Below, piece after piece: positions 4,604-58,154 of a DNA stretch of 64,000 bases. This DNA comes from Escherichia phage vB_EcoM_Shinka. The stretch lies in sequence record MZ502379.1; one strand, given 5' to 3'. Under the pieces are notes generated by a model. That model saw only the letters and a list, made by a program, of their open reading frames with translations. It was not told the origin of the DNA and ran no database searches. Every line of letters starts with the position of its first letter. Within the stretch, counting starts at the first letter, position 1. The translations under genes were made by a program, and so were the position numbers.

Positions 4604-4971
4604 TTAAATTTAATGGCTTGAAGAAGACTAATAACTCTCAAGCGACTTCTTTCATCTTTAACTGTAAAAGAAAGAGGGTCACCAGACTTCATAGTAATAG
4701 TGCATTCAAAATCAAAATCTTCGGAAACTTCTTTGAAGAAGTCAAATTCTTCATCATAAATTAAAACTTCACTCCGAAGACTGTGAAGAGTTTTTCCGTC
4801 ATTTCCAGATGCTGTACTAATCATTGTAACATTATTACCTTTCATATCTTCAACGATAAATTCGCTTGTAGATATTACAGCATTAATAGAACCATTCCTA
4901 TAAATAGCAGAAAATAGATATTTCTTTTCTTCACCTTCGCGAATGCGATATTTCTTACCGATTTTAAACAT
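4600..4971 (-). CDS. hypothetical protein (123 aa)
   Basis: ORF with start/stop overlap to its neighbour (translational coupling). Confidence 0.55.
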   Translation of the reverse strand: MFKIGKKYRIREGEEKKYLFSAIYRNGSINAVISTSEFIVEDMKGNNVTMISTASGNDGKTLHSLRSEVLIYDEEFDFFKEVSEDFDFECTITMKSGDPLSFTVKDERSRLRVISLLQAIKFK

Positions 4972-12154: not shown

Positions 12155-12762
12155 TCAACTACCTCAATATCATAAACTTTAAATGTTCCAAATGAATCGT
12201 GTAATTTTTCTTTTGAAATAGAAGTTATTCTATACTTTCCAATTGGAATCATCCATTCTTGTTCACGCACAATCATCATTAAGTTATCAGTACGCTCTGA
12301 ATCTAGCCCATCAGTATCTTCATACGTGTACTTAAACTCAGTATTAGGAGAAGAAAGTATAATATCGCTGATATGGTCAGAATAATTAAAAGCTTTATCA
12401 GTTTTTAAGCGAAATATTATTTCAGTGAAATACTCAACATAAGAAAAACCACATGCTGTGTGCAAACTAGTAGTAAATGAATCTACCCTATTCGTTGAAA
12501 ACACTTCTCCAACTTGTAAATCTTTAATGAGTTCTTTTGTCGATTTTGATATACCACGATATAACTGATAAGGTGATTTAGTTAAATGCTTTTTAACGAT
12601 TTTATTCAACTGCCGATGAAGAGCTTCATTCTTTTTAGCTTCCATACATTGCCAAAGAATTGACTGCTCAAAGTCAGTAAATTTTTCACAGACTTTTTTA
12701 TACATATCATATTGAAAATCAACGCTTTCAGCTTTTATAGAATAACTGTTCAACATCTGCAA
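12151..12762 (-). CDS. modB: ADP-ribosyltransferase ModB (203 aa)
   Basis: Paralog directly upstream of modA with 4-nt overlap. Confidence 0.75.
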   Translation of the reverse strand: MQMLNSYSIKAESVDFQYDMYKKVCEKFTDFEQSILWQCMEAKKNEALHRQLNKIVKKHLTKSPYQLYRGISKSTKELIKDLQVGEVFSTNRVDSFTTSLHTACGFSYVEYFTEIIFRLKTDKAFNYSDHISDIILSSPNTEFKYTYEDTDGLDSERTDNLMMIVREQEWMIPIGKYRITSISKEKLHDSFGTFKVYDIEVVE

Positions 12763-15252: not shown

Positions 15253-15260
15253 TATTTATA
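15253..15260 (-). promoter_or_regulatory. late promoter TATAAATA for soc
   Basis: Plus strand tatttata; about 25 nt upstream of the soc ATG with a GGAG SD between. Confidence 0.7.

Positions 15261-15869: not shown

Positions 15870-15870
<1 letters not shown>
15844..15870 (-). promoter_or_regulatory. candidate MotA-dependent middle promoter for gene 56
   Basis: Minus strand TTGCTTAC, 13 nt, TATAAT. Confidence 0.45.
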
Positions 15871-17209
<1,339 letters not shown>

Positions 17210-17234
17210 TATATCATCCTCAGCAATTTATTTT

Positions 17235-17264
17235 ATAATACCATAACAAGCTGAGAAAGTAAAC
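17235..17264 (-). promoter_or_regulatory. T4-type early promoter for the nuclease-like ORF and dam
   Basis: Minus strand GTTTAC-tttctcagcttgttatgg-TATTAT. Confidence 0.65.
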
Positions 17265-17308
17265 AAATTTATGAAATTTGTGATAAATATTAATTTAAAG
17301 GAGGACAT

Positions 17309-17365
17309 ATGGCACAAAAATTAATGGCACTTGTTAATGCCATAAAAGGTAATAAAAACGTATAG
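17309..17365 (+). CDS. plus-strand mini-ORF (18 aa) with strong SD
   Basis: AAGGAGG 6 nt upstream of ATG; MAQKLMALVNAIKGNKNV; may continue into the next ORF via a frameshift or sequencing error. Confidence 0.25.
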   Translation: MAQKLMALVNAIKGNKNV

Positions 17366-17382
17366 CTTTTACTATTTCTGCT

Positions 17383-17508
17383 ATGGTAGGAATTTTACTC
17401 TGGAACTTTATTTTATCACCAATTGCAATTGCGCATGGTGTTAATATTCCAGTAGTTACTCTTGATACATTCGTAGATCTAGCATTTGCTTTAGTTGGGT
17501 TAATTTAA
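17383..17508 (+). CDS. plus-strand small hydrophobic peptide (41 aa)
   Basis: MVGILLWNFILSPIAIAHGVNIPVVTLDTFVDLAFALVGLI; convergent with and abutting the gene 61 3' end. Confidence 0.3.
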   Translation: MVGILLWNFILSPIAIAHGVNIPVVTLDTFVDLAFALVGLI

Positions 17509-18533
17509 ATCTTGGCATATTTAGATAACCGCATTTTAGCCATTAACCCCTGGGCAATATTATTTTTCATATATTCCATAATTTGTTCAGGGGTTGCACC
17601 TTCCTTTCTAATCATATCATTAACATCTTTTGATTTCCAGGGAGATTTATCCCAAAACATAACCCTTTCTCCTGCATCAACTAATTTAGTCATTCGCTTG
17701 ATAGTGTCAGGGTGACGAGGCTCATTATCTAAAACCCACACTCGTCTATCTTTAAATGGAACAACTTCTAGGTCTAATTGACCACCCGTAATAGCTATAC
17801 CATTTTCAATAAAAAGTGAATCTATAGGTCCTTCTAGAACATATACATCACCATCTTTAACTCGTTCGACTCCATATATTTTTGTTGCCTCAGGATAAGC
17901 TTTGATGGTGATATATTTTTGAGGAGCATCTTTCTTTAATGCACGTCCTTGAAAAGACTCAGCTTTTCCATTAGCATTATAAATTGGAATAACAAGACGA
18001 GGCTCAGAAATTTCCTTTTTGTATGTTCCCGGTGCTATGCTATTAACTAATTTAGGCCATTCGGTTGTAAACCAAAGATATTTCCATTTATCCTTTGGAA
18101 TACAACGAGCTTTTACATATTTTATAATTGGATGGTCTTCCGCCAGTTTATCTAATCTAACACATGACGGAAGAGATTTAATTATTTTCTTCTCAGGATG
18201 TTTAGGAAGTTCTTTAGGTTTTTCTACTGGACGACTTTTACCTTTTTCTTTTCTTATTTCAAAGATATACTCACGATATAAATCAGGTTCAAACTCCTTT
18301 AAATATATTCCGATTGGCGCATGATAGTTACAGTTATAACAATGAATATTTCCTTCATTATTATCACCATAATACCATCCACGCGCTTTATTTTGGTCGG
18401 TTTTTGAATCTCCACAAACTGGGCATCTAAACCGTAATTTAAAAGTTGAACTATTATTTACTTGTGTGAATTTAGGTAAATGAGCTAATGCACGATATGC
18501 AAACTCATTATCAATCCAAGCTATTGATGACAT
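17505..18533 (-). CDS. 61: DNA primase, zinc-binding domain plus Toprim (342 aa)
   Basis: CPVCGD...CYNCNYH zinc ribbon, Toprim EGPIDSL; 342 aa as T4 gp61. Confidence 0.95.
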   Translation of the reverse strand: MSSIAWIDNEFAYRALAHLPKFTQVNNSSTFKLRFRCPVCGDSKTDQNKARGWYYGDNNEGNIHCYNCNYHAPIGIYLKEFEPDLYREYIFEIRKEKGKSRPVEKPKELPKHPEKKIIKSLPSCVRLDKLAEDHPIIKYVKARCIPKDKWKYLWFTTEWPKLVNSIAPGTYKKEISEPRLVIPIYNANGKAESFQGRALKKDAPQKYITIKAYPEATKIYGVERVKDGDVYVLEGPIDSLFIENGIAITGGQLDLEVVPFKDRRVWVLDNEPRHPDTIKRMTKLVDAGERVMFWDKSPWKSKDVNDMIRKEGATPEQIMEYMKNNIAQGLMAKMRLSKYAKI

Positions 18534-18700
18534 TCTTTACTCTTCTTTTTCTTTAGATTCCTCTTTTTTCTTTTAGGAATCTGTTCAGGACCTTTATTTA
18601 CTACAGCACCTGATGTTGTTCCAGTAGAGATATTTTCAGGATTACCACCTGAATCTCCAGCAACCATATCTTCTTTAATAAATTCTTTATATGTTTTCAT
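18521..18700 (-). CDS. small basic protein (59 aa), 61.1-like
   Basis: Hand translation MKTYKEFIKEDMVAGDSGGNPENISTGTTSG...KRKKRNLKKKKSKECHQ; overlaps the gene 61 start. Confidence 0.45.
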   Translation of the reverse strand: MKTYKEFIKEDMVAGDSGGNPENISTGTTSGAVVNKGPEQIPKRKKRNLKKKKSKECHQ

Positions 18701-32479: not shown

Positions 32480-32668
32480 TTAGTCATAATAATCAGTAAC
32501 AGTCCAAGCTTCATTTCTATTGGACATTATTTTTGTATATTCTGCTTTAAATGCATTCCTAAGCATAGATTCAGTAACTATATGCTCTTCATTAGAAAAA
32601 TTATTTCTCAGAATATATCGTTTTATTTCAGGAATAGTTAATAGATGCTGTCCGGTTGAATATTCCAT
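32480..32668 (-). CDS. hypothetical protein (62 aa)
   Basis: Small ORF between 46 and rpbA. Confidence 0.45.
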   Translation of the reverse strand: MEYSTGQHLLTIPEIKRYILRNNFSNEEHIVTESMLRNAFKAEYTKIMSNRNEAWTVTDYYD

Positions 32669-32723
32669 GTTTTTCCTCCATAGAGATTATACTCTAATAA
32701 ATTAAAGCATAATCTCTTATAAA

Positions 32724-34406
32724 TTAAACCATTACAGTAAATCGACCAACTTTCTTCATTTGAAGATGCTGACCGTATGCTTGTGGGTCATGGTCTCTAT
32801 GCGAAATAACAAAAACATTAGTATTTTTTAAACTATCTAAAATAGTTGAAATAGCTTTTACACCTTCAACGTCGGTCGCTGAATCAAAAACTTCATCAAG
32901 AATTAGTGTGTTTATTTTAACACCTGAAACTTTTTCAGCAATATCACGCCAAGTAAATAAAAGAGCAATATCAATTCGTGCTTTTTCACCTTGACTGAAT
33001 GAAGCATAACTAAAATCTTCACGACCACGGGATTTAATTGTCTCATTAAATTCTTCATCTAATGTAAACACATAATCCGCTTCCATTATTTTAAGATAAT
33101 AGTTAATCTGCTTATTAAATAATGGAATGTACTTTTTAATAATAGCACCTTTAATACCAGAATCTTTGAGCATATCAGTCAAAATTCCTCGGTGGTATTT
33201 TTCCATTACTAAATTAGTTTTTGTCTTAACAATTTTATCAAGTTCTTCTTGAAGCAGTGCTATTTCATCAGCATGGTCAATAAACTCAGAAGATGCTTTT
33301 TCTATAGCCGCTTTAACTTTTTTAGCTTTATCTACCGTCGTGATTAGAGATTGCTTTTTATTGCGAATATCATTTGCCAACGACTGCTGGGTTTTAATAT
33401 TATCTCGGTATTCATCAACAAGAACTTTTAAATTATCACGATGTGTTGAAAGCTGTTCAAACGAATGCGTGCATTCAGAAACTTTATCTTTAATTTTAGA
33501 AACAACTTTATCACCGGAACTCAATTGTGACAAGCAGGTTGGACATAATCCACCTTCGTGATACATATTAATGACTTTATTATACGAGTCAATTTTTGAT
33601 TTAATTAAAACTGCTTCTTGACCGATTTTATTAAATGCATCAGTCGGGTCTTCGTCTAAAACAATATTAACTAATCTTTCATTAGCTTCTTCTATTTCCG
33701 ATTTTAGCGTTCTAGCTTCTTTTGCCAAATCATCATACATATTTTGCAGACGAGTAAGATTGTCACCCGTTAATTTTTTCTGGCGTTCAACGTTATCATT
33801 ATATATTTTAATTTGTTGGATAATACTATCTTTTTTAACATCAAGCACTTGGTTTTGTGAATTTAATTCACGTATTAGTGCTTTATTAAGCTTATCCATT
33901 TCAGCTAATGTTCCTACCTCAAGCAGGTCTTCCACAAGCTTTCTTCGTGCAGGGGTCGACAAACCCATGAAAGGGGTATACCCTGCTGTACCAAGGACAA
34001 CAATCTGCTTGAAACTGGCATATGACATTCCGATAAGCTGTTCAAATTCTGCTTGGAAATCTTTACTGCTGGCAGATTCATTAAGACGTGTACCGTTAAC
34101 GGTGATTTCGAAAACGTTTGGTTTTTGTCCTCTTTTGATATAGTACTTTTTCTCATCATATTCCATCCACAGTTCAACTAAAAGTTCTTTCTTATTTGTG
34201 CTGTTTATTAATTGACCTTTCTTTACATCACGAAATGGCTTGCCAAAAAGCCCAAATGTGATGGCTTCTAACATAGTAGACTTACCACCGCCATTTCGTC
34301 CAGTAATAAGAGTTTTTTGAACCTTATCTAGTTGAATGTCAATAGGATTTCCACCTACTGACATTATATTTTGATACCTAACTCGGTTTAGTTTAAAATT
34401 CTTCAC
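32724..34406 (-). CDS. 46: recombination nuclease ATPase subunit, Rad50/SbcC-like (560 aa)
   Basis: Walker A GRNGGGKST, central coiled coil, CPTC zinc hook, C-terminal Walker B/D-loop. Confidence 0.95.
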   Translation of the reverse strand: MKNFKLNRVRYQNIMSVGGNPIDIQLDKVQKTLITGRNGGGKSTMLEAITFGLFGKPFRDVKKGQLINSTNKKELLVELWMEYDEKKYYIKRGQKPNVFEITVNGTRLNESASSKDFQAEFEQLIGMSYASFKQIVVLGTAGYTPFMGLSTPARRKLVEDLLEVGTLAEMDKLNKALIRELNSQNQVLDVKKDSIIQQIKIYNDNVERQKKLTGDNLTRLQNMYDDLAKEARTLKSEIEEANERLVNIVLDEDPTDAFNKIGQEAVLIKSKIDSYNKVINMYHEGGLCPTCLSQLSSGDKVVSKIKDKVSECTHSFEQLSTHRDNLKVLVDEYRDNIKTQQSLANDIRNKKQSLITTVDKAKKVKAAIEKASSEFIDHADEIALLQEELDKIVKTKTNLVMEKYHRGILTDMLKDSGIKGAIIKKYIPLFNKQINYYLKIMEADYVFTLDEEFNETIKSRGREDFSYASFSQGEKARIDIALLFTWRDIAEKVSGVKINTLILDEVFDSATDVEGVKAISTILDSLKNTNVFVISHRDHDPQAYGQHLQMKKVGRFTVMV

Positions 34407-53799: not shown

Positions 53800-53807
53800 T
53801 ATTTATA
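53800..53807 (-). promoter_or_regulatory. candidate late promoter TATAAATA
   Basis: Plus strand tatttata about 25 nt upstream of the ATG at 53774, with AAAGGGG SD. Confidence 0.4.
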
Positions 53808-57792: not shown

Positions 57793-58154
57793 TATAAGCT
57801 CTCAGTAAAGGTACGAGCAATAACGTCGCGCTGCTGTTCCGGAGTCAGAGAGTTAAAGCGAACTGCATAACCGGATACACGGATGGTCAGCTGCGGATAT
57901 TTTTCCGGATGCTTAACTGCATCTTCCAGAGTTTCACGACGCAGAACGTTAACGTTTAGGTGTTGACCACCTTCAATTTTAACTGTAGGCTGTGGCTCAA
58001 TTTCAATTTCACGAGCATGCAAACCGTAGAAAATTTCTGGGTCTACAAAAGAGTCCTCTTTAAAGGTTTTAGAGACAATAATTCGTGCTTGAATACCATC
58101 TTCAAAATAAATAGTACCTTTATGTGTGCCTTCAAGAATTTGATATGCTTTCAT
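57792..58154 (-). CDS. autonomous glycyl radical cofactor, GrcA/YfiD-like (120 aa)
   Basis: C-terminal [60 protein letters not shown] is the glycyl-radical module as in E. coli GrcA; its DNA is visibly more GC-rich. Confidence 0.85.

Follow-up and report, generated by a model that had tools for sequence, protein, structure and literature searches.

Within the 64,000-nt stretch of Escherichia phage vB_EcoM_Shinka DNA analyzed here (sequence record MZ502379.1; hereafter the window), the short plus-strand locus at positions 17,290–17,508 is very probably one disrupted gene of the phrog_2024 family, in which the ORF for a small hydrophobic protein of 66 aa has been divided between two reading frames by the absence of a single A. 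Members of phrog_2024 have an uninterrupted ORF of 63–67 codons, whereas the window contains separate ORFs of 18 and 41 codons, and its copy as it stands is a disrupted (pseudogene) member of this family.

According to its ORF content, the window covers the early region of a Tequatrovirus (T4-like) genome, including genes 56, dam, 61, 61.1, 61.2, sp, 61.4, dmd and 41, all of them on the minus strand. The best 20-kb match to the window was found in Yersinia phage PYps14T (98.7%), and a megablast search returned no identical record. The first-pass annotation had stated that all neighbors of the locus are minus-strand genes, and this is true of every flanking gene between 15 and 21.4 kb (ORF list). 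Its description of the locus as the only credible plus-strand coding signal also holds: the other plus-strand ORFs of at least 50 aa that begin with ATG in the 64-kb window have no convincing Shine-Dalgarno (SD) sequence and look like antisense shadows.

The 66-aa ORF belongs to the clockwise strand; it is flanked by dam or gene 56 and by the 3′ end of the primase gene 61. Gene 61 (DNA primase; 17,505–18,533, minus strand) is the convergent neighbor of the small ORF in every lineage, and the stop codons of the two genes overlap in the window, in T4 and in RB69-type phages. On the other side lies a gene for a PD-(D/E)XK nuclease-like protein of 186 aa (16,649–17,209, minus strand), which is translationally coupled to dam and is considered here as context only.

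Two reading frames of one split gene

The 5′ fragment of the gene (17,309–17,365, plus strand) is preceded by the SD sequence AAGGAGG (17,298–17,304, plus strand). This motif had been placed 6 nt upstream of the ATG at 17,309; both motif and start codon are present, but the spacer between them is 4 nt long (ACAT), 6 nt being the spacing observed in T4 itself. The mini-ORF of 18 aa was read directly and from the ORF list, and consists of 18 codons followed by the stop codon TAG at 17,363–17,365 (ATG GCA CAA AAA TTA ATG GCA CTT GTT AAT GCC ATA AAA GGT AAT AAA AAC GTA TAG), as had been proposed. Aligned to intact alleles, its codons 1–16 are native (MAQKLMALVNAIKGNK), and they are followed by two post-frameshift residues (N and V) and the stop. 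The 3′ part of the gene in the native frame (17,359–17,508, plus strand) comprises codons R18–I66 and the TAA stop, and encodes the greater part of the transmembrane helix together with the loop and the C-terminal helix. It contains the previously noted hydrophobic ORF of 41 aa (MVGILLWNFILSPIAIAHGVNIPVVTLDTFVDLAFALVGLI; 17,383–17,508, plus strand), which was found as described; this ORF begins at Met26, an internal residue of the full-length protein, has no SD sequence of its own and terminates with a TAA codon (17,506–17,508) overlapping the stop of gene 61.

The −1 frameshift maps to a run of five A residues (A5; 17,354–17,358, plus strand), which is a run of six (A6; AAA AAA, Lys16–Lys17) in intact alleles. 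The run starts one base 5′ of the stretch 17,355–17,385, earlier proposed for resequencing, and shares its first four bases. Intact relatives read GGT AAT AAA AAA CGT where the window reads GGT AAT AAA AAC GT, and the alignment is otherwise identical. The suggestion of the first-pass annotation that a frameshift or an error might have split a single small membrane protein into the two frames is thus supported, as close relatives carry a single 66-aa ORF and the window is one A short. In phages 107, JB75, fPS-65, fFiEco06 and PYps14T, a single plus-strand CDS of 201 nt is annotated at this locus, and in two of these five records its product is named "putative (trans)membrane protein." In the 66-aa protein, the mini-ORF corresponds to the N-terminus and the hydrophobic peptide to residues 26–66. 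The repaired protein, MAQKLMALVNAIKGNKKRIAFTISAMVGILLWNFILSPIAIAHGVNIPVVTLDTFVDLAFALVGLI, has exact copies on 111 public contigs (exact-protein index). Translation of the window copy would be predicted to halt after 18 codons, leaving the other 49 native codons out of frame and without an SD sequence of their own. Rescue of the A5 allele by a programmed −1 shift of the ribosome on T AAA AAC was also considered, and was rejected as the main reading on our assessment that the heptamer is imperfect and is not accompanied by a supporting structure.

The repaired protein matches phrog_2024 with an E-value of 1.6e-31 (residues 3–66 against profile positions 2–65 of 65), and the same profile matches its homologues from RB69 (2.9e-27), KPV15 (1.6e-24) and PM2 (2.3e-25). 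The gene is therefore a member of an already catalogued, uncharacterized family (phrog_2024; RB69ORF029w, RB32ORF030w; "putative transmembrane protein"), whose members it resembles in profile, genomic slot, strand, length and SD sequence, and from which the window copy differs in being split into 18 + 41 codons. The slot typical of phrog_2024, with gene 61 on one side, gene 56 or dam on the other and both neighbors encoded on the opposite strand, was found in the window and in its relatives, and the order 56 / plus-strand ORF / 61 was seen in RB69, phiC120, VR20, PSD2001, KPV15 and PM2. By tblastn, approximately 700 phage records were found to carry a homologue, nearly all of them adjoining gene 61. 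A profile search of 1.84 billion representatives returned only phage proteins of 61–65 aa and repeat artefacts; the long top-scoring matches (P0032, P0036 and P0037) were rejected as internally repetitive artefacts of this kind. Neither the 66-aa protein nor its distant homologues had a match in Pfam, NCBIfam or PADLOC.

Conservation across T-even genomes, which had been put forward as a check, was confirmed: the region is kept as coding in six Tevenvirinae lineages, namely Tequatrovirus, Mosigvirus, Gaprivervirus, Jiaodavirus, Mosugukvirus and an unclassified metagenomic lineage. Position, orientation, length (63–67 aa), a strong SD sequence and an upstream NATAAATA motif are kept across all six. 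The homologues of Mosigvirus (RB69ORF029w and phiC120) and Gaprivervirus (VR20 and PSD2001) show 44–55% identity, and lower values (21–26%) were obtained for the proteins of Jiaodavirus KPV15 (63 aa) and Mosugukvirus PM2 (67 aa) and for that of the unclassified metagenomic lineage (63 aa); every one of them matches phrog_2024 (E-values of 1e-24 to 1e-31). No variation among the homologue groups was seen at W32, N33, P38, G44 and P48, and position 53 is acidic in all of them. In Tequatrovirus itself, the small ORF is present in 502 of 502 records. The ORF of T4 is intact (AF158101.6, positions 17738–17938), yet the record has no feature there; the records of T2, HY01 and PP01 likewise omit it, and in T6 the ATG start is replaced by ATT. 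Overall, the ORF is continuous in about 98% of public copies, and the gene is broken in approximately 1–2% of public contigs.

Recurrent indels in the A-run

The A5 allele was found in at least seven other assemblies (T4_ev240, a48, 4E10, an ENA metagenome scaffold and three SRA-derived contigs; aligned loci L005, L035, L036, L037, L038, L042 and L043). In addition, one contig (locus L039) carries a run of seven A residues (A7), its ORF and the upstream 60 nt being otherwise identical to those of the window. The backgrounds on which A5 and A7 occur are 0 to 51 differences apart, and A5 is present on at least four of them. Because these A5 backgrounds differ from each other at 1 to 51 positions, the alignment points to at least four or five independent ±1 events in the run, which is, judging from the aligned alleles, a recurrent slippage site. 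The remnant of 41 aa occurs on approximately 14–20 public contigs, compared with many hundreds that encode the intact protein, and is annotated as a gene in 4E10, a48 and T4_ev240. When IMG/VR, the GTDB genomes and the JGI metagenomes were scanned for the exact A5 pattern, 0 matches were obtained; it was only by way of the exact-protein index that the other A5 alleles came to light. The occurrence of the same −1 change and of a +1 change in independent assemblies indicates that the gene is dispensable and has been lost repeatedly. In view of the broken copies on public contigs and of the ATT found in T6, it is at most conditionally useful.

The frameshift of the window may alternatively be a sequencing or assembly error (a miscounted homopolymer), the phage truly carrying an intact 66-aa gene, and we regard this as a possibility of real weight, if short of a probable one. 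It is favored by two further single-base frameshifts that separate the window from its two closest relatives in conserved genes within 6 kb: (i) a +1 change at 12,741, 11 codons into modB, and (ii) a −1 change in a T5 run at 18,571, which rewrites the C-terminus of gp61.1 at a site where all ten other loci spanning it have T5. The resulting gp61.1 variant of 59 aa occurs in one public record only, that of vB_EcoM_Shinka (exact-protein index). Moreover, the 121 bases of the window around the A-run have no exact match in the phage collection, the best match being 99.2% identical. Against an error stands the presence of A5 or A7 in no fewer than eight assemblies that are independent of one another and come from different laboratories and sources; one of these assemblies is a single base from the window. 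In addition, runs of six A residues are the classical hot spots of spontaneous frameshift mutation in T4 (Benzer's rII hot spots; Streisinger's slipped-mispairing model), and a real mutation at this site is fully plausible.

With the rII hot spots and with contingency loci, the A-run shares recurring ±1 changes in a six-A tract on varied backgrounds. The independent recurrent changes expected of a contingency locus are indeed found here (A5 on at least four backgrounds and A7 on that of the window). The tract differs from those of contingency loci, however, in being short (6 nt) and interrupted by a synonymous AAG in many lineages, and in that its reversibility is only hypothetical. It is not long and conserved enough for high-rate reversible switching, since it is replaced by AAG AAA or AAA AAG in T4, in phage 107 and in several contigs of IMG/VR. 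Because of its shortness and of these synonymous interruptions, we take the A-run to be a hot spot of mutation in a gene that the phage can do without, and not a dedicated switch. A more far-reaching reading, in which a conserved late inner-membrane gene acts on the envelope (in lysis timing or inhibition, or in exclusion) and is, in addition, switched off and on in populations by slippage, as a contingency gene of a virulent phage, is as a whole decidedly unlikely.

Late-promoter-like motif, coding constraint and the opposite strand

Upstream of the SD sequence, a late-promoter-like element, GATAAATA (17,282–17,289, plus strand), is located 19 nt before the ATG. It matches the T4 late-promoter consensus TATAAATA (positions −13 to −6) at 7 of 8 positions, with the mismatch at −13, which is the least conserved position of the consensus (PMC2988020, PMC1524935). 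The G found at −13 is not among the common variants of late promoters, whereas A is. In T4, early and middle transcripts are all counter-clockwise and only late transcripts use both strands (PMC2988020); a plus-strand gene at this place should therefore be a late one.

The distribution of the motif in the window was also analyzed. On both strands together, ATAAATA occurs in 9 copies against 43 ± 7 expected, i.e., it is approximately five-fold depleted, and the signal at the small ORF exceeds chance. All five minus-strand copies are placed 13–30 nt before the ATG of soc, of gene 49, of e (two copies) or of a 70-aa ORF, and one of the four plus-strand copies is that located 19 nt before the ATG of the small ORF. 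At the locus itself, [ACG]ATAAATA is found 12–22 nt before the ATG in T4, T6-type phages, RB69, VR20, KPV15 and PM2, although the flanking DNA has diverged and, in the other genera, cannot be aligned. The T4 late genes located in early regions (soc, the late start of gene 49, and e) likewise have a short NATAAATA element 12–30 nt before the ATG, a very short leader and a strong SD sequence. They differ from the small ORF in being counter-clockwise here and in having T or A at −13; the small ORF is clockwise, with G at −13 of a putative promoter. Location among early genes is common to the small ORF and to soc, 49 and e.

For RB69, no late promoter is listed before RB69ORF029w, and a minus-strand middle promoter (Pm:16038) is placed over the same bases (Nolan et al., 2006), so part of the conservation of the motif in this phage could serve the opposite strand. 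We infer that the NATAAATA motif may act as a gp55-type late promoter, for which transcription would be predicted to start at approximately 17,295, so that the SD sequence would lie in a leader approximately 14 nt long. On the strength of motif and strand, late expression of the 66-aa gene appears probable, and we hold this view with moderate confidence. A literature search on the gene and its homologues retrieved no transcript, ribosome-footprint or peptide evidence, and no T4 transcription-start map.

No plus-strand terminator is predicted for approximately 3 kb after the small ORF, and a transcript made late would therefore continue into gene 61 in antisense orientation. The main product of the locus might accordingly be a late antisense RNA directed against the 3′ end of the gene 61 mRNA, the promoter mattering more than the peptide, and several T4 sites are known to be transcribed from both strands at different times (PMC2988020). 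This explanation leaves the amino-acid conservation, the strong SD sequence and the conserved length of the ORF unaccounted for, and the ORF of Gaprivervirus ends 100–200 nt short of gene 61. We consider it very unlikely as a replacement for a protein-coding gene; an antisense RNA could be an additional rather than an alternative role.

The coding character of the ORF was assessed on 13 distinct Tequatrovirus alleles, whose 26 variable sites fall on codon positions 1, 2 and 3 in the proportion 9/2/15. The pN/pS ratio in the 66-aa frame is 0.17 (pooled Nei-Gojobori), whereas the other five frames have ratios of 0.23 to 2.1 and all contain stops, the 66-aa frame being the sole open one of the six. 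Within the A-run, the base substitutions are silent: AAG AAA and AAA AAG both still encode Lys-Lys. Because of the third-position bias, the low pN/pS, the synonymous variants of the A-run and the conservation of the protein among phages whose DNA is too divergent to align, the allele comparison shows the 66-aa ORF to be protein-coding and under purifying selection.

On the minus strand, a terminator-like hairpin, ATGGCATTAACAAGTGCCAT followed by TAATTTTTGT (17,314–17,343), lies about 160 nt past the stop codon of gene 61 and within codons 6–12 of the small ORF. Its fold has a z-score of −2.27, a terminator is annotated at the same site in fPS-65 (and others in the region in SA20RB), and from its structure and position it looks like the terminator of gene 61. 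An Rfam search of positions 17,000–17,800 on both strands gave no match. The presence of this hairpin inside the ORF, the early promoter of the next gene that is predicted just upstream in fPS-65, and the lack of annotation in the T4, T2, HY01 and PP01 records might suggest a chance open frame in a region consisting only of the 3′ tail and terminator of gene 61 and of promoter DNA for downstream early genes. Such an origin is highly improbable in view of the pN/pS value and of variation skewed to third codon positions, of homologues (21–55% identical) that hold the same slot in genera with unalignable DNA, and of the restriction of the hairpin, unlike the protein, to Tequatrovirus.

The first-pass annotation had also compared the small peptide and the divergent nuclease-like gene to a toxin or immunity module. 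The two genes are adjacent and divergent in the window, and the neighbor has both the motif and the fold of a PD-(D/E)XK nuclease. The distribution of the genes speaks against this comparison: the nuclease-like gene occurs in only about 145 of 503 Tequatrovirus records, whereas the ORF is present in all 502; T4 has an intact ORF yet only a 3′ remnant of the nuclease gene; and Mosigvirus, Gaprivervirus, Jiaodavirus and Mosugukvirus carry the ORF without either the nuclease gene or dam. Furthermore, the conserved partner of the nuclease is dam, to which it is coupled even at 55% identity, the two would be expressed at different times (the nuclease early or in the middle period, the ORF late), and PADLOC gave no match. 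A toxin or immunity partnership of the small protein with the nuclease is thus extremely improbable.

Finally, control of the hydrophobic ORF by an 18-codon leader peptide acting through RNA structure, as in the attenuator arrangement proposed earlier, would agree with a short ORF with a strong SD sequence, a segment able to form a hairpin (ATGGCACTTGTTAATGCCAT) and, 17 nt past the first stop, a second ORF, but it is practically untenable, as the mini-ORF is the N-terminus of a gene that intact alleles contain as one continuous ORF (by themselves sufficient to refute it), the plus-strand RNA folds ordinarily (z −0.56), the T tail of the hairpin is on the minus strand only, Rfam gave no match, and neither a plus-strand terminator nor a downstream plus-strand gene follows.

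Predicted protein and significance of the locus

The 66-aa protein was modeled with AlphaFold2 (51 homologues; pLDDT 79), giving predicted helices at residues 2–12, 16–42 and 52–65. In the model, an amphipathic N-terminal helix (2–12) and a basic cluster (K13–R18) precede a long helix (16–42), which is followed by a Pro/Gly loop (43–51) and a short acidic amphipathic helix (52–65). The peptide VNIPVVTLDTFVDLAFALVGLI is very hydrophobic, and hydropathy peaks at 2.0 at residues 23–41 (Kyte-Doolittle, 19-residue window). All basic residues are N-terminal (K4, K13 and K16–R18), and the protein ends with ...DLAFALVGLI. It is predicted that the product would insert into the inner membrane with its basic N-terminal helix in the cytoplasm, one span (approximately residues 16–42) and the acidic helix (52–65) in the periplasm. 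This N-in/C-out arrangement is the simplest topology under the positive-inside rule, and a single span with an external C-terminus is, as far as the model can be relied on, rather likely. The invariant residues (W32-N33, P38, G44, P48 and the acidic residue 53) suggest helix-helix association, either in self-oligomerization or with a partner membrane protein. A cleavable signal peptide (P-x-A-I-A / H-G) was considered and rejected, the A-x-A motif not being kept in distant homologues (LASTHG and LAHTQG).

When BFVD was searched with the model, the only folds retrieved besides noise were those of its own family (the "Holin" entry of OE5505 and the 63-aa protein of CIP9). The label "Holin" is attached to the OE5505 homologue in one UniRef entry and one BFVD entry, and looks automated. 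The 66-aa protein shares small size, a hydrophobic transmembrane helix and, probably, late expression with holins. However, holins have a highly charged hydrophilic C-terminal domain, whereas in the 66-aa protein such a domain is lacking and the charge is N-terminal; and holin genes are linked to endolysin or lysis cassettes, whereas gene e is about 44 kb away (near 61 kb). T4 already has a defined holin, gp t. "Holin" is therefore treated here as a resemblance and not as membership.

By analogy, the protein may be compared with Imm, Sp and RI of T4 (superinfection exclusion and lysis inhibition), which are likewise small membrane or periplasmic proteins of T-even phages; of these, sp is located in the same cluster, 1.6 kb from the small ORF. 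They differ from the 66-aa protein in having no detected sequence similarity to it, in being encoded on the opposite strand and, probably, in timing. Our best guess is that the protein would play a role at the envelope late in infection, e.g., in lysis timing, membrane integrity or exclusion, and any one specific function of this kind is unlikely to prove the correct one.

For annotation, these results mean that the locus should be treated as one disrupted gene and not as two peptides or a regulatory leader. The interest of the gene is modest and lies in its absence from the T4 reference annotation, in the good circumstantial case for late expression and in the recurrent indel site. T4 is the reference of the family, yet AF158101.6 omits this intact and conserved ORF of 66 codons. 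The indels in the A6 run provide a natural set of knock-outs (a48, 4E10 and T4_ev240) that can be compared with their intact relatives.

Late-promoter cores in the window

In a whole-window scan, the core of the T4 late promoter (ATAAATA) was found to be approximately five-fold depleted, with 9 copies observed and 43 expected. The copies are located at positions 4900, 17283, 58107 and 61464 on the plus strand, and at 15259, 45196, 53806, 61061 and 61074 on the minus strand. The plus-strand site at 4899-4906 is the full TATAAATA motif. No ORF lies behind this site or behind the plus-strand copies at 58107 and 61464, and these three may be promoters of late antisense transcription or may match by chance. 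On the minus strand, a 70-aa ORF at ~53780 is preceded by a perfect late-promoter motif (TATAAATA at 53806) and an SD sequence, its ATG being placed 25 nt past the motif; this predicted ORF appears to be a further late gene within the early region.

In RB69 (locus L013), the sequence AATAAATA (~16032-16039), placed before ORF029w, adjoins a MotA-box-like CGCTTTA on the opposite strand and falls within Pm:16038, a middle promoter for gene 56 predicted by Nolan et al. The same few bases of RB69 may serve promoters on both strands.

Frameshifts and other differences between genomes

Two other single-base frameshifts were identified in the window: (i) at position 12741, one more A is present than in fFiEco06 and PYps14T, the two closest relatives, which shifts the modB frame 11 codons in, so that ModB, an ADP-ribosyltransferase, is here either disrupted or missing its N-terminal part, and (ii) at position 18571, within gene 61.1 (18521-18700, minus strand), a T5 run is short by one T, while T5 is present in all ten other loci spanning the site. 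The latter leaves gp61.1 with 59 aa and the C-terminus ...PKRKKRNLKKKKSKECHQ in place of 54 aa and ...PKKKKEESKEKEE, and the lengthened ORF overlaps the start of gene 61. The exact form of the 59-aa variant is on record for phage vB_EcoM_Shinka only. At ~32665-32738, the plus-strand HNH endonuclease gene found in fFiEco06 between genes 45.2 and 46 (locus L011, 31826-32613) is absent from the window, which is a typical presence/absence difference of a homing endonuclease.

In T6 (AP018814.1; locus L029, 1192-1392) the plus-strand 66-aa membrane-protein gene next to gene 61 (the small ORF) begins with ATT instead of ATG, and the annotated CDS was begun at Met6 and named "putative head morphogenesis protein". 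In the same record soc appears as "terminase small subunit" and gp56 as "ferredoxin", and the names are therefore transfer artefacts. In contig L041 (JGI 3300045387; 1412 nt), the 5' end of the small ORF and its promoter are placed, reverse-complemented, upstream of the 41-aa remnant (residues 26-66); this probably reflects a chimera or an inversion made in assembly and not a genuine rearrangement.

A nuclease-like gene coupled to dam

Directly upstream of dam (GATC methylase; 15870-16649, minus strand) lies a nuclease-like ORF of 186 aa (16649-17209, minus strand), whose stop overlaps the dam start. Its PD-(D/E)XK-type motif (FDIVI ... IEIKHQ) is invariant, and weak matches were obtained to DpnII (Pfam, E 0.0045) and to a type II REase (PADLOC, E 9e-5). 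The AlphaFold2 model matches the PD-(D/E)XK nucleases VC1899, AF1548, MunI, Bax1 and Can2. Relatives sharing 55% identity are also encoded directly upstream of a D12 methyltransferase. The gene occurs in a subset of T-even phages (~145 of 503 records). In T4 (AF158101.6), just a 3' remnant is left between dam and the small ORF (locus L004, 1904-1966; record ~17639-17701), and the gene therefore appears to have been removed by deletion. The 186-aa protein could be a restriction-like nuclease partnering the GATC methylase in some T-even phages.
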